Notes: generated by a model from the letters alone, not told the origin. A stretch of 64,000 bases of DNA from Acidobacteriota bacterium (GCA_040755995.1 JBFMAF010000011.1:1-64000); one strand, 5' to 3'; shown: positions 17,503 through 47,251, counted from the stretch's first letter. Made by a program: numbers and translations.

Positions 17503-17739
17503 CTACAGTCTGTCTCTCTCATCAGGCTGGACGTCCGCTACCTTGCCTATTGCGCGTCGAAATCCCTTCCGACTGCCACGCTTCGCGCGCTTGCCGAGGT
17601 ACTCCTCCGTCATGAGCGCCGATAGTTTCTCCGCCAGCGCCACCGTAATCAGCTGGTTGATGGAAATGTGTTCCTGCCGTGCCATGTCACGGACGCGCTC
17701 ATGGAGCGACTCGGGTAGTCGTAGACTGATTGTGCTCAT
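17503..17739 (-). CDS. RHH/HicB-like antitoxin
   Basis: MSTISLRLPESLHERVRDMARQEHISINQLI. Confidence 0.85.
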   Translation of the reverse strand: MSTISLRLPESLHERVRDMARQEHISINQLITVALAEKLSALMTEEYLGKRAKRGSRKGFRRAIGKVADVQPDERDRL

Positions 17740-18164
17740 TTCACCACTCCTATCTTCTGAAGGAACTCCTTCGGGGTCAGAGCGTTCAACCCGAACCGCT
17801 CGACGCCCTCAAAATCGCTCTTGTTGAAGGTCACTATGAAGTCACACTTCCCCGTGACGGCCAATTCCAAGACCATATCGTCTCTTGGGTCGCTCAGGAA
17901 AGGTCGCCAGAGGTAGTAGATCTGGCGGTGATGGGCGACCGAACAGACATAGTCCAAAATGACATCGATGTCACGCCGCGTCAGCGGAATCTCACCGACC
18001 AGCCGCTTGGCTACTGCTTCGTACTCTAACACCAACGGAACGGAGAGATTGGCTTGGTACTTGCCGCTGTCAATCAGAGACAGCAGCCGGTAGGATGCGC
18101 GTCTTCTTGATCGCAGTGCTGCGATCAAGACGTTCGTGTCGATTACAATCTGATACACAGGCAT
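17736..18164 (-). CDS. PIN-domain toxin (PIN_3 type)
   Basis: VIDTNV, LEYE, DPRDDMVLELA and IVTFNKSDF motifs. Confidence 0.9.
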   Translation of the reverse strand: MPVYQIVIDTNVLIAALRSRRRASYRLLSLIDSGKYQANLSVPLVLEYEAVAKRLVGEIPLTRRDIDVILDYVCSVAHHRQIYYLWRPFLSDPRDDMVLELAVTGKCDFIVTFNKSDFEGVERFGLNALTPKEFLQKIGVVK

Positions 18165-18165
18165 G

Positions 18166-18199
18166 GTGGTATCGTATTTGATACCACGCCAGTTGTCAA
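18166..18199 (-). promoter_or_regulatory. Promoter TTGACA-N17-TACGAT overlapped by operator GTGGTATC-N6-GATACCAC; probably leaderless transcript
   Basis: tgtcaa 18194-18199, atcgta 18171-18176, perfect 8-bp inverted repeat 18166-18187, ATG at 18164. Confidence 0.7.
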
Positions 18200-18380
18200 C
18201 TCATCCGGAACCGACGGGCTCAAAGGCGCCGTCCACGGTAGCACCGACCCTTCCCGCTCGCCAGCGCGGACCGGGAGTGTCGCCTTCGGCCAGAGGGCGC
18301 CGGTGGTGGAATCGGACTGGAACTTCACGACCGATGGAAGCTATCCGTCCTTTGCTCCGAGCCCACTACCGGCGGGTTTG

Positions 18381-18619
18381 CTACGACCGGTCCTTCGACT
18401 TGAAGCGCAGGACCTTGTGCGCGAAGACCTCCATGCGCGAGACTATGTTCGGCGGATAGGGCTGGCCGTCGTTCTCCAGTGCCAGCACCGGGTAGTCGCG
18501 CGCCTTCGCCCACGGGGCGTAGACGCCTTCGATCGGGCGGCCTGGGAGACAGCCGAAGGGAGCGATGATGACCACCACGGAGTAGCCGTCCTTCATCGCC
18601 GCCGCTCCTACCGCCGGCG
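18381..18619 (-). pseudogene. Diverged duplicate of the 3' end of the CoA-activase gene
   Basis: 18392-18619 aligns gap-free with 19465-19692 (27 mismatches in 228 nt by hand count). Confidence 0.95.
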
Positions 18620-43571: not shown

Positions 43572-43665
43572 ACCCAAGCTCCTTCAGGCAAGCGCCGATG
43601 GCACCGTCCAGCTTCGCAGCTTCCCCCTGCTGCCGCGCCCGCGGGATTGCAGCGACCCTCGTCAC
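43530..43665 (-). repeat. hsdM 3'-end copy 2 (mini-ORF 43561-43665) plus start of a DUF1016-like gene
   Basis: QQGEAAKLDGAIGACLKELGYGQ* vs [23 protein letters not shown]; homologous to about 44775-44907. Confidence 0.9.
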
Positions 43666-44816
43666 GCCCGTGCCTCCTGCTCCTCGACCCACTCAAGGAG
43701 CTTGCGTCTCAAGTCCTCCTTTGACGGCAAGTAGAGCTGATATTCCTTGGCGTGGATATGGGCGTCTTTGGGAAGGGTGATCTCCACTAGCGCATCGTGT
43801 TTCTTCTTGCAGAGGATGATGCCGACGGTCGGGTGTTCGTCTTCTGTCTTCACGTGGCGGTCGAAGTAGTTGGCATACATCTGCATCTGTCCAAGGTCCT
43901 GGTGGGTCAGCTTGCCGATCTTGAGGTCGATCAGCACATAGCAGCGGAGCAGTCTGTTGTAGAAGACTAGATCCACATAGAAATGATCTTCATCGAATGT
44001 GAACCGCTTCTGGCGGGCTTCGAAAAGGAATCCTTTCCCCAGCTCCAGTAGGAAGTGTTCGAGCCTGTCGATGATGGCGGACTCCAGGTCCGATTCCGAA
44101 TACCCCGATTTTTCATCGAGTCCCAGAAACTCCAGCACGTATGGTTCCTTCAGAAGATCCTGCGGCCCGGTGATGACCTGTCCCTCCTTGGCCAGTCTGC
44201 GGATTTCCGCCTTGTCTCGGCTCAGTGCCAGACGTTCGTAGAGGCTGGAGCTGAATTGACGCTTCAGTTCCCGGAGCGACCAACCGCACGAGGAGGCTTC
44301 GAGCTCGTAGAAGGCGCGCTCCTTTGGGTCTCCGATGCCCATCAGAAAGACGTAGTGAGACCAGCTCAACGGGAAGGATGGCTTGCCGGGGATGAGAACA
44401 CCCTGTGCTGCCGGCGCCATGCCGGATTCACCAGATGGCGTCCGGCGTTTCTTGCCTGCTCCCGATTGCCCAGACAGTGTCTGGGGAATTGAAGTGGACC
44501 GGGACCGGTACATCGAATAGAAACGACGCATGTACTCAAGATTGCTCTTGGAGAACCCCTTGCCGAACTCCGCAATCAGCCGTTCAGCCAGCTCTCTGAG
44601 GATGTGCTGTCCATACTCTGCTCTGACTAGCCCCTGCTGTTCGTGTTCCACGATCCGGCGGCCTATCTCAAAGCATGTCAGGACCTGCAGAATATCCACG
44701 CTGCGAACTGCCGCCCTTCGAGCCGACAGGATGAGGTTGCGGATATCTGCAAGGAGTGTGTCTACTCGCTCCAGCACCTCGTCGGAGTTCCCGATCTCGT
44801 TTTCCCTACTCGCCAT
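43662..44816 (-). CDS. YhcG/DUF1016 PD-(D/E)XK nuclease
   Basis: [36 protein letters not shown] and GQMQMY motifs. Confidence 0.93.
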
Positions 44817-46383
44817 ACCCAAGCTCCTTCAGGTTGGCGGCGATGGCGGCGTCGAGCTTCGCGGCTTCGGCCTGCTGCTGTCGCAGCGTGGCGGTAAGCC
44901 GCTTCATTTTCTCCTCGAACGGCTCGGCGTCCTCCGCCTGTGCCTCGGCACCGACATAGCGACCTGGCGTGAGCACGTGGCTGTGCTTGCGGATCTCCTC
45001 GATCGTCGCGCTCTTGCAGAAACCTGGCCGGTCTGCGTACCCGCCTGCTTCTTGCTCTCCCCTCCACGCGTGATATGTCTTGGCGATACAGGCGATGTCT
45101 TCGTCGGCCAGCTCGCGGTGCGTGCGATCCACCATGCGGCCCAGCTTGCGCGCGTCGATGAAGAGCACCTGGCCTCGCCGGTCGCGGAACCTGCCGTTCT
45201 TGCGGTCGCGGGCAATGAACCAAAGGCACGCGGGGATCTGCGTCGAATAGAAGAGCTGCCCTGGCAGCGCCACCATGCAATCCACCAGGTTGGCCTCGAC
45301 CAGGTTCTTCCGGATCTCGCCTTCGCCAGACTGGTTCGACGACATCGAGCCGTTGGCCAGCACGAAGCCGGCCACGCCCGAGGGGGCGAGATGATGGACG
45401 ATGTGCTGCACCCAGGCGAAGTTGGCGTTGCCCACCGGCGGCGCGCCGTACTTCCAGCGCTTGTCATCGCGCAGCCGATCCCCGCCCCAGTCGGAGATGT
45501 TGAACGGTGGGTTGGCAAGGATGTAGTCGGCCCTCAGGTCGGGGTGGCGGTCGTTGTGGAAGGTGTCACCATGGGCGATCTGACCGTCGATGCCGCGGAT
45601 CGCGAGGTTCATCTTCGCCAGCCGCCAGGTGGTGTAGTTGGATTCCTGGCCGTAGATCGAGATGTCGGCCCGGGCCCTGCCGCCGTTGCCGTTGCCCATG
45701 GCGTGTGCGCGGATGAACTCCACCGACTGCACGAACATGCCCGAAGAGCCGCAGCACGGGTCGTACACGCGAACGCGATAGGGCTCGAGCATCTCGACCA
45801 GCAGTCTCACCACGCAGCGCGGCGTGTAGAACTCGCCGCCCTTCTTGCCCTCGGCGCTCGCGAACTGCGAGAGGAAGTACTCGTAGACGCGGCCGAGCAC
45901 GTCCTTGGCGCGGCTCTCCTCGTCGCCGAGCTTGATGTTGCTGATCAGATCAATGAGCTGGCCGAGGCGCTGTTTGTCGAGCGCCGGGCGGGCATAGTCC
46001 TTGGGCAGCACCCCCTTGAGCGCCGGGTTGTCCCGCTCGATGCCGACCATCGCGTCGTCCACGAGCTGGCCGATCGTGGGCTGGCGGCCATGTGACTTGA
46101 GATGCGCCCAACGTGCCTCAGGTGGCACCCAGAAGATACTCTGAGCCCGGTACTCATCCGGATCCTCGGGATCGGCGCCCTGCAAACGCTGGGCTTCGAG
46201 TCGGCTGTGCCGTTCCTCAAAGGCATCGGAGATGTACTTGAGGAAGATGAGACCGAGGACGACGTGCTTGTACTCCGCGGCATCCATGCTGCCGCGCAGA
46301 GCGTCGGCCATCTGCCACAGTTCGGCTTCGTATCCGACCTTAGCCGTCGAGTTCTTCATGCCATTGGATCTTCTCGTCGCCAT
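44806..46383 (-). CDS. hsdM: Type I RM N6-adenine methyltransferase
   Basis: [25 protein letters not shown] and NPPF motifs. Confidence 0.96.
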
Positions 46384-46538
46384 CAGAGGCTCTCCTCAGA
46401 CTGCTTGAAGAATCACCCCTGCCGGACCCCGGGCACTCACTTACGAGTGCCATTTCATGAGGTGATTCCCGCCGGTCATTATACATCGAGCCCAGCCTGG
46501 TGAGAACGGCGATCAGGTCGAGTATCTCGGCCGGACAG

Positions 46539-47251
46539 CTACGATTGGAATTGAGGATGGTCTACGAAGAGATCGGGCCTCGCAGAGCGAAAAGAGTAGT
46601 GAGTTGAGGAATCGAGGATGATGTGGTCCAGGAATCGGAGGCCCGCGGCGGCAAGCGCGCGAGCAACAGCAGCTGTCAGGGCGCTGTCAGCCTCCGATGG
46701 CGATGGATCGCCGGAAGGGTGGCTATGCGCAATCAGCGCGGCAGAGGCGCGTGCCGCGAGCGCACGCTCGAGGATCTTGCGTGGATGCAGCAGCGCATCG
46801 TCGGCAGTCCCCGCGCAATGACCTCGTGACCCAGAACACCGTTCTTCGGATCGAGATGCAGGATGCGCACCTCTTCCTCGCGAGCTCCCAGGAAAGACTC
46901 ACCGAGGTACGATGCAGCCTCGGCTGGCGATGTGATCCGCTTGCGTCTGCTGAGCCTCTCGGGGCGTGCAGCCTCGAAGCGCAGAGCTGCCGCCAACCGA
47001 ATCAGGACCAATGCTGCGGGACCGACGCCTGGGACGCGGAGCAAGACTTCATCGGGTGCTGCGAGCACGCCTGCGACGCTGCCGCACTCGGCCAACAACT
47101 GTTTGGCGATCGGCTTCACATCGCGTCTCGGGATGGCGTAGGTCAGCAGCAGCTCGATCAGTTCGTGGTCGGAGAATGCACTCGCTCCGGAGCTCAGAAA
47201 CCGCGCCCGAAGCCGTTTCCTGTGACCCGATGCGTCCGGTGGCTTGTTCAC
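46539..47251 (-). pseudogene. radC: RadC (JAB domain) with a 1-nt deletion frameshift in a G4 run at about 46809-46812
   Basis: GHRKRLRARF...HELIELLL; after the shift TADDALLHPRKILERAL...AHSHPSGDPSPSEAD...LDHII. Confidence 0.9.

Follow-up and report, generated by a model that had tools for sequence, protein, structure and literature searches.

How do pieces of a gene come to lie beside the intact gene, separated from it by unrelated genes? The question is raised by a stretch of 64,000 nucleotides (nt) from an Acidobacteriota bacterium (GCA_040755995.1 JBFMAF010000011.1:1-64000; hereafter the window), in which two genes, a coenzyme A (CoA) activase gene and hsdM, are each accompanied by diverged fragments of themselves at the edges of toxin-antitoxin (TA) or defence genes. 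The window corresponds to C11:1-64000 of the genome assembly G000, which comprises 7.74 Mb in 56 contigs. A preliminary description of this DNA proposed that conserved genes serve as recombination anchors for the repeated capture of small TA and defence cassettes without an integrase. We find that the pattern is real, genome-wide and integrase-free, and that it is probably anchored on homology; it belongs to a known kind of event and does not amount to a TA-capture system. What is new here is a census of such gene fragments, which we call shards, and a 29:3 polarity of tails over heads.

The activase gene (19430-23692, minus strand) encodes a 1420-amino-acid (aa) BadF/BadG/BcrA/BcrD-type CoA activase with DUF2229, identified by Pfam and by its relatives, and two of its segments, 19465-19692 and 22301-22400, are repeated nearby. 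The first recurs as a 3'-tail shard from a second allele (18392-18619, minus strand; 228 nt, 88% identity, E 2e-78), which has an open frame (18381-18596) with a stop codon of its own. The two tails are separated by a 0.85-kb insert whose cargo is TA pair 2 (18633-19365, minus strand; Pfam, PADLOC PDC-S70), composed of UPF0175 (19111-19365) and a DUF3368 PIN-type protein (18633-19127); the tail shard begins 13 nt after the DUF3368 stop codon. Beyond the shard sits TA pair 1 (17503-18164, minus strand), a profile-supported combination of a PIN_3 toxin (17736-18164) and a HicB/RHH-like antitoxin (17503-17739), for which self-BLAST revealed neither a duplication of its own nor a shard of the adjoining FAD gene. 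That gene, an FAD-binding oxidoreductase (16032-17402, minus strand; Pfam FAD_binding_4), is the usual downstream neighbour of the activase and forms the far edge of the inserts. Upstream of the activase lies an internal shard of another allele (24993-25092, minus strand), which corresponds to gene nt 1293-1392 and matches 22301-22400 over 100 nt at 79% identity. Two small genes (24036-24991, plus strand), encoding a 163-aa protein without a family match and a TfoX_N protein, stand between the activase and this shard. TA pair 3 (25255-25868, plus strand) consists of an AbrB/MazE-type doc partner and a Doc toxin (TIGR02609 and TIGR01550, both above cut-off; start codon assigned from sequence). 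Read along the minus strand, the order is internal shard, two opposite-strand small genes, activase, UPF0175, DUF3368, tail shard, PIN toxin, antitoxin and FAD gene. Sigma-70-like promoters were recognized by eye for TA pairs 1 to 3 (18165-18205, 19366-19410 and 25215-25255, respectively), and in that of the PIN pair an inverted repeat appears to span the -10 region.

At the second locus, the parent hsdM (44806-46359, minus strand; Pfam and PADLOC search) carries, within its last codons, both an AAGGAG motif and the codon at which the next gene starts. That gene, yhcG, encodes a YhcG (DUF1016) PD-(D/E)XK nuclease (43662-44816, minus strand; Pfam, PADLOC PDC-S02) and is the cargo of a 1.1-kb insert between the end of hsdM and tail 2 (43524-43633, minus strand). 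Tail 2 extends beyond the hsdM stop codon into a yhcG-like start and matches 44769-44878 over 110 nt at 82% identity (84% over 100 nt by BLAST), with 2, 4 and 5 differences from the parent at the three codon positions. Behind it lies a chimeric 72-aa open reading frame (ORF; 43359-43577, minus strand) in which about 15 yhcG-start-like codons precede the last 55 codons of a RecG-C/winged-helix passenger gene; its end is 76% identical over 55 aa to the end of L288:8814-10226, a gene that lies whole between two hsdM tails in genome G037. The ORF is itself a scar. The AlbA gene at C39 was also considered as its relative and gave no match. Tail 3 (42965-43024, minus strand), the most decayed copy, is identical to hsdM at 28 of the final 36 nt, and the start codon and ribosome-binding motif of hsdS (41743-42981, minus strand; Pfam, PADLOC) lie within it; every hsdM tail includes an AAGGAG motif together with the start codon of whichever gene comes next. 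On the restriction side, the locus is broken (39557-41730, minus strand): the HsdR match begins at profile position 512 of 1029, leaving a C-terminal half (39557-41161), and the TIGR04474 (tcmP-like) gene is in two pieces (41047-41730). With hsdM and hsdS seemingly whole, hsdR halved and the tcmP-like gene split, the locus is likely a modification-only remnant, judging from its gene content. The minus-strand order is hsdM, yhcG, tail 2, chimeric ORF, tail 3, hsdS, split tcmP and half hsdR. The four fragments on which the preliminary description was built, two of the activase and two of hsdM, are thus all present, and all share the orientation of their parents.

The window also lacks the mobile-element genes and sites that the preliminary description had found missing. 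The 69 window proteins gave no integrase or transposase match in Pfam; searches of the window returned no tRNA, no Rfam match, no attC-like site and no dispersed repeat of at least 400 nt; its junctions bear no insertion sequence (IS) or integrase scars; and contig C11 has no tyrosine-recombinase match. Across the 7.7-Mb genome, a simple pattern-and-fold scan, as distinct from a covariance model, found 2 attC-like sites. There are 20 tyrosine-recombinase matches in the genome, and its sole TIGR02249 integron-integrase gene, at C36, has an in-frame stop; none is on C11.

We then took the census of the whole genome. Genes were called with a purpose-built codon model, which missed some atypical small genes, and all DNA outside genes of at least 200 aa was compared with those genes. 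This yielded 432 shard loci, 291 of them low-copy. Within 15 kb of the parent lay 93 of the 291, against 1.04 expected, so the genome-wide enrichment near parents that had been put forward as a check is present. Of these near shards, 84 were in parent orientation and 42 reached the stop codon as 3' tails (3.6 expected); tails downstream of the parent outnumbered heads upstream by 29 to 3. Tails and heads numbered 42 and 8 near parents versus 63 and 43 among distant shards (p = 0.003). The near shards form 48 clusters, 41 of them all-direct. Shards have a median identity of 88% and a median length of 109 nt (10th to 90th percentile, 49 to 304 nt), and the parents are 71 different genes among 4,197 larger genes (about 1.7%). 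The three window pairs each have a copy number of 2. The copy-number filter removed 13 shards within 30 kb of the parent, so stacks are undercounted; one filtered shard is a tail 19 kb behind a gene that we take to be sat.

The joints are sharp and variable in position. A single parent can have several start points (1177, 1549 and 1620 in a hydantoinase gene; tails of about 21 to 76 codons for hsdM), no 5-mer is enriched at 55 joints, and the joints between cargo and shard are not at repeats. We also considered whether joints cluster at cargo stop codons; about 11 of 55 fell within 30 nt of a gene end against a background of 17%, which is no clear excess. None of the 84 direct shards has a dispersed repeat within 1 kb, with the proviso that IS copies are often missing from such assemblies, and a tyrosine recombinase lies within 15 kb of only 6 of them; serine recombinases were not searched genome-wide. 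When a single pipeline was applied to genome tiles, strict shards appeared in 25 of 356 tiles of G000, in 1 of 40 evenly spaced tiles from seven other genomes of the phylum, and in 2 of 40 mostly PIN-centred tiles from the same family. These tile counts are small; a shard excess in this genome is possible, but they do not show the genome to be exceptional.

Several clusters outside the window are more elaborate. At C36:312832-331876 (L172), three hydantoinase B shards are stacked downstream of their parent and surround PemK, YefM-YoeB, an AAA/DUF4143 gene and the stop-interrupted integron-integrase gene, which has no adjacent attC-like sites. At C23:76000-91400 (L167 and flank), copies of AAA-ATPase and PD-(D/E)XK genes alternate with their shards and with Phd-PIN and DUF433 genes, accompanied by five pieces (74-88% identity) of the end of an opposite-strand gene; this deep stack was partly lost to the copy-number filter. 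Three consecutive tail-cargo-tail units occur at C39:2272-18070 (L174), with CdhD, SNF2 helicase and AlbA/RecG-C genes as parents and AAA/DUF4143, YhcG and AAA_13 genes as cargo. YhgA-like (Transposase_31) genes appear in two roles, as cargo and as a parent that has several tail pieces, at C23:119146-124250 (L188) and at L179; we take this family to consist of recombination-promoting nucleases, not true transposases.

We next considered whether a shard is a decayed duplicate of its neighbour or a piece of a different allele. The 84 direct shards differ from their parents at 9.2%, 8.3% and 19.3% of first, second and third codon positions, with a ratio of nonsynonymous to synonymous substitution (dN/dS) of 0.31 and 5 stop codons among them. 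In the activase tail shard the differences are distributed 2/2/23, that is, 23 of 27 at position 3, and in the internal activase shard 8/2/11. The tail shard is 88% identical to its parent and 85-89% identical to genes of other organisms, and the internal shard is closer to the Syntrophaceae-type relatives L103 and L030 (85%) than to its parent (79%). The codon pattern identifies the shards as pieces of another, presumably once-working allele rather than of a decayed fresh duplicate. The dN/dS value demonstrates a coding past and not a route, because an eroded old paralogue fits it equally and distant shards have a similar ratio (0.26).

Comparison with other genomes separated the two parents. 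We compared 140 related activase loci, many of them short-flanked and drawn from two overlapping source collections, and none carried a diverged shard; this count sets aside a repeat of 30 nt that derives from the variable end in L119, as well as paralogues at 22-30% identity in L029, L044, L139 and L140. The TA, TfoX and 163-aa genes of the window were not found at these loci. Of 64 close loci with at least 600 nt of downstream sequence, 60 have the FAD gene no more than 450 nt after the activase (61 when one at 467 nt is counted), an empty site defined across species, not in a sister strain. The inserts are local to this lineage. Nor is the activase a general hot spot, contrary to the recurring anchor that had been envisaged. 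Two genomes of the same family gave best activase matches of only 38-39%, and the relatives at 85-88% belong to Syntrophales-type and other bacteria; the activase-FAD gene pair looks widely exchanged, to judge from these similarities. The pair (16032-23692) is conserved at 85-88% across Syntrophales-type, myxococcal and unclassified bacteria, with spirochaete forms more distant.

The hsdM gene is a recurring anchor. Its end was matched in 39 of 201 genomes of the phylum, and besides G000, 4 of the other 38 (G031, G105, G159 and G037) had two hsdM-end matches within about 2 kb on one contig. Among 20 hsdM loci examined, which were partly chosen for double matches, repeated tails were present at the loci of these four genomes. 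G105 has three, the first followed by a nucleotidyltransferase-HepT pair and the third joined to a truncated hsdS in mid-gene. The mid-gene junction of a truncated hsdS with an hsdM tail, seen at L287 in a stack of three, is what a fragment with random ends would leave. In G031 an ORF6N gene lies between two tails. At L271 and L272, hsdM directly precedes hsdS-like genes, which represents the empty site. One further match, at +6254 of L284, proved not to be an hsdM tail. At L287:109-1809, an hsdS gene carries a GIY-YIG nuclease domain between its two specificity domains.

Do these fragments mark a system that is specific to TA and defence genes or to conserved anchors? Pfam families were assigned to 54 of the 71 parents and to 105 of 259 listed cargo proteins. 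The parents include hydrolases, surface proteins, kinases, helicases, AAA, WYL and YhcG proteins, and redox and catabolic enzymes, whereas 12 of the 54 gave no match at E ≤ 1e-7; ribosomal, polymerase and tRNA-synthetase families were absent. Some anchors are of housekeeping type (ThiF, CdhD, an aminotransferase), and most belong to accessory-type families; the notion that anchors are conserved genes is not supported by these parents or by the activase, which was not found in the two same-family genomes. The cargo includes TA- or defence-like genes (Phd, PIN, PemK, YoeB, DUF433-DUF5615, YhcG and AAA genes) as well as TonB receptors, an exchanger, two-component genes, phosphate-uptake genes, transporters and large surface proteins. 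Because gene calling misses atypical small genes, we located TA loci by six-frame family searches. Nine TA families were searched, so the 107 loci recovered are an undercount; one 1131-aa NTP_transf_2 match was excluded, and the merging of neighbouring loci hid the UPF0175 pair of the window from the count of TA loci between parent and shard. A shard lay within 2 kb of 13 of the 107 loci (12%) versus 4.2% of all genes (p = 0.0006), about a threefold excess, which was marginal when measured against small atypical-codon genes (6.4%; p = 0.04, or p = 0.08 with the window excluded). The enrichment beside TA genes that had been anticipated thus exists against all genes and is marginal against similar ones. 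Conversely, only 14 of the 84 shards have a TA locus within 2 kb, which, with the breadth of the cargo, speaks against a dedicated TA or defence capture system. The association between TA loci and shards, although real, is modest and for the most part reflects the places where foreign DNA resides.

As to mechanism, we lean toward the view that the shards are scars left by one-sided, homology-anchored recombination of linear DNA, for which no dedicated machinery is needed. We infer that homology guided the placement and that the far end was joined illegitimately. A linear fragment bearing a homologue X' of a resident gene X, plus the DNA downstream of it, would enter the cell, presumably by transformation; RecA would pair the fragment with X; and the far end would join illegitimately inside X, not beyond it, so that a stretch of X would be doubled with cargo in between. 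Repeated events would stack the tails. Tails might outlive heads by being silent and, at hsdM, by supplying the ribosome-binding site of the next gene, and TA pairs could be somewhat over-represented as small units with their own promoter that would resist loss through recombination between the repeats. The genome contains recA, comEC, dprA, comM, recJ and mutS. The competence genes comEC, dprA and comM, whose presence had been named as a check, permit transformation but do not demonstrate it, because they were matched in 8 to 11 of 14 control genomes as well. The enrichment near parents, the orientation bias, the two-allele codon pattern and the absence of IS or att scars uphold the core of the preliminary description, namely integrase-free, homology-guided, repeated addition of DNA beside a matching gene.

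Several observations weigh against this account. The recJ and mutS genes look intact, so no repair defect explains a raised rate, and we discarded that possibility. No identical patch marks a crossover: an excess identical stretch occurred in 1 of 13 tail-down shards at p ≤ 0.05, and by this measure repeats near parents were no different from distant shards (p = 0.39). Eroded old tandem paralogues would yield the same dN/dS. To account for the 26 internal pieces found downstream and the 10 tails found upstream, later deletions or additional events must be invoked. Over 41 loci, the body of the activase agrees better with its present tail (rho 0.76; controls 0.61 to 0.97) than with the shard (rho 0.52), and a tree of activase tails places neither the tail nor the shard. 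Neither result supports the shard as the original tail of the gene, pushed downstream; either most of the activase gene was replaced, or the shard arrived with the cargo. Finally, according to the available text of PMC5361080, experiments show recombination of this kind to be less frequent than ordinary homologous recombination by orders of magnitude.

One alternative is that a tail-cargo-tail unit loops out through its repeats as a circle, moves between cells and integrates by a single crossover that renews the duplication, which would make the unit a self-propagating minimal element. Circles were proposed for rhs loci (PMC2935791) and a "virus-like cycle" was suggested in PMC2853133, in the portions of those papers available. 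Circles would fit the mismatch between shard and gene body, and in two shards of C43:91954-93303 the start point is the same and the upstream flanks are similar, which suggests reuse of a finished joint. However, the first joint would still require an illegitimate event, repeats of 109 nt and 88% identity (medians) are poor substrates, no excess of identical patches occurs within the repeats, and the cargo of the window was not found at the 140 other activase loci; we consider circles unlikely. It is also rather improbable that each shard is the remnant of a whole second copy, either an old tandem paralogue or a block gained beside its homologue, that wore away while the cargo came separately. 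Such erosion accounts for the low dN/dS, for the internal pieces and for collinear pieces on both sides of a parent (activase nt 1293-1392 upstream, 4001-4228 downstream), and some parents do belong to tandem families (C8 permeases, FG-GAP proteins). Yet no close tandem activase copy occurs in the 140 loci, and erosion predicts neither the excess of tails over heads near parents relative to distant shards nor stacks of three hsdM tails, each with the start codon of the next gene.

The bias toward same-orientation 3' tails downstream is also what would be expected from decayed site-specific elements, that is, prophages or islands that integrated in a gene end, provided a replacement tail and later lost their integrase. 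The e14 element at E. coli icd has such a replacement gene tail. The tyrosine-recombinase matches and the integron-integrase gene show that integrase-type genes occur in this genome. Set against them are 71 parents with several joints each and no shared motif, the 78 of 84 shards without a tyrosine recombinase within 15 kb, the interrupted state of the integron integrase and the scarcity of attC-like sites, and we judge this origin quite improbable. Merging of alleles from co-occurring strains into one contig is very improbable: the assembly is in 56 contigs, but no identical run between the activase copies exceeds 26 nt, joints between cargo and shard lie away from repeats, and hsdM stacks recur in four other genomes. 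A sequencing run (X1; share 0.07) contained only homologues from other organisms and was uninformative about the joints in this strain.

Insertion with long target duplication was reportedly described by Nobusato et al. in 2000. As characterized in the available text of PMC2853133, it places an insert of less than 20 kb between imperfect direct repeats of more than 30 bp and variable length; the repeats often span a stop or start codon, no other mobile element is present, an empty site exists elsewhere, and the species are mostly competent. The present loci share much with this: repeats of more than 30 bp flank the inserts (228 nt, 88%; 110 nt, 82%), the inserts are below 20 kb (0.85 and 1.1 kb) with no other mobile element in the window, the repeats are unique (copy number 2) and variable in length (49-304 nt), and empty sites exist across species (60 of 64 activase loci; hsdM in L271 and L272). 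Unlike those examples, the inserts here are UPF0175-DUF3368 and yhcG, with no restriction (R) and modification (M) genes. The survey by Furuta, Abe and Kobayashi (2010), as far as its accessible text extends, considered restriction-modification cargo only and linked the mechanism to DNA breaks made by those enzymes (PMC2853133); R and M cargo was a selection criterion of that survey, not of the insertion mode. Relative to the same text, the cargo here is of any kind, the repeats are more diverged (median 88%) and the codon pattern identifies them as two alleles; the word "synonymous" does not occur in the text seen, whereas the codon pattern is used here.

Displacement of rhs C-terminal ends (Jackson et al. 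2009) leaves same-orientation fragments of variable length, about 90% alike, downstream of the intact gene, in strings with intervening genes (PMC2935791, available part). Anchor fragments are likewise stacked downstream in the same orientation here (hsdM three times in the window and at L287, hydantoinase B three times at C36). The payload in rhs, so far as that source describes it, consists of a variable toxin tip, joined to the anchor gene and accompanied by an immunity gene; here, in contrast, the anchor product is unchanged, the tails are conserved alleles of enzymes, the payload consists of separate genes, and there are dozens of unrelated anchors. In Vibrio cholerae type VI secretion system arrays, sequential displacement has been ascribed to homology-facilitated illegitimate recombination (Kirchberger et al. 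2017, PMC5361080), and its authors, in the available text, draw a comparison with integrons, with no integrase known. In additive growth and shifted 3' gene ends those arrays resemble the present loci, which probably share their one-sided anchor and illegitimate joint; by the same text the arrays are confined to effector-immunity loci under immunity selection, whereas the shards here occur throughout the genome and with no single class of cargo. Minimal mobile elements (Saunders and Snyder 2002, via PMC3787668) gain genes by recombination in neighbouring genes without integrase or transposase. According to the part of PMC3787668 available, two crossovers in two conserved flanks replace the region without duplication, and the elements are defined by strain variation at a fixed site; here, by contrast, duplications are present and no insert separates the activase from the FAD gene in 60 of 64 loci. 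Like integrons, the present loci show serial addition beside a fixed point, displacement of older passengers and TA pairs among the cargo; unlike them, they have no attC-like sites in the window, no intact integrase and variable joints. The footprint, as these partly available sources (PMC2853133, PMC2935791, PMC5361080) indicate, had already been described, so the mode is not new. Our literature search, whose coverage largely excluded subscription journals, turned up no genome-wide census with a codon test.

The footprint, published in 2000-2017 and not restricted to TA genes, nonetheless bears on how TA and defence genes enter chromosomes without a mobile element. It can be screened for in a single genome as a synonymously diverged gene tail in the same orientation downstream of its parent, and wide screening could measure the share of gene gain that is homology-anchored and the divergence that is spanned. 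The hsdM stacks would illustrate how passengers nest in a restriction operon while translation is kept. Only tentatively do we entertain a more general reading, in which one-sided anchored insertion, far from being a laboratory rarity, routinely brings genes into wild bacteria and can be counted. If all its particulars hold together, about 1.7% of larger genes (71 of 4,197) would be marked by it; donors would be 5-25% diverged; a 3' polarity of 29:3, unstated by current models, would be characteristic of it; gene ends that include the ribosome-binding site of the next gene, as in hsdM, would act as self-renewing landing pads, integrons without an integrase; and defence and TA passengers would stack on such pads and be translated at once.

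Other features of the window stand apart from the shards. The preliminary description counted five TA pairs, of which the three beside the activase shards are profile-supported. The fourth (30070-30782, plus strand) is a probable pair of DUF433 and DUF5615-like genes, with a weak DUF5615 match below cut-off (E 0.0019). The candidate fifth is a two-gene operon (3911-4473; 87 and 100 aa) with TA-like anatomy and one PADLOC NsnC match; neither gene matched Pfam or NCBIfam over cut-off, and we assume it to be a TA pair from a general resemblance. Self-BLAST found no shard next to pair 4 or pair 5. Upstream of hsdM is a RadC-like gene (46733-47251, minus strand) whose match ends part-way along the family profile. 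Tandem repeats of 7 nt and a two-copy repeat of 79 nt (58-136, 60974-61052, 50169, 52332-52371, 52480-52500 and 54591-54616) occupy intergenic gaps around the atp operon, and the genome contains 56 arrays of at least three 7-mers. Elsewhere, C55:221953-241146 holds several repeats of 0.4 to 1.2 kb at about 90% identity, with two integron-integrase-like fragments among them.

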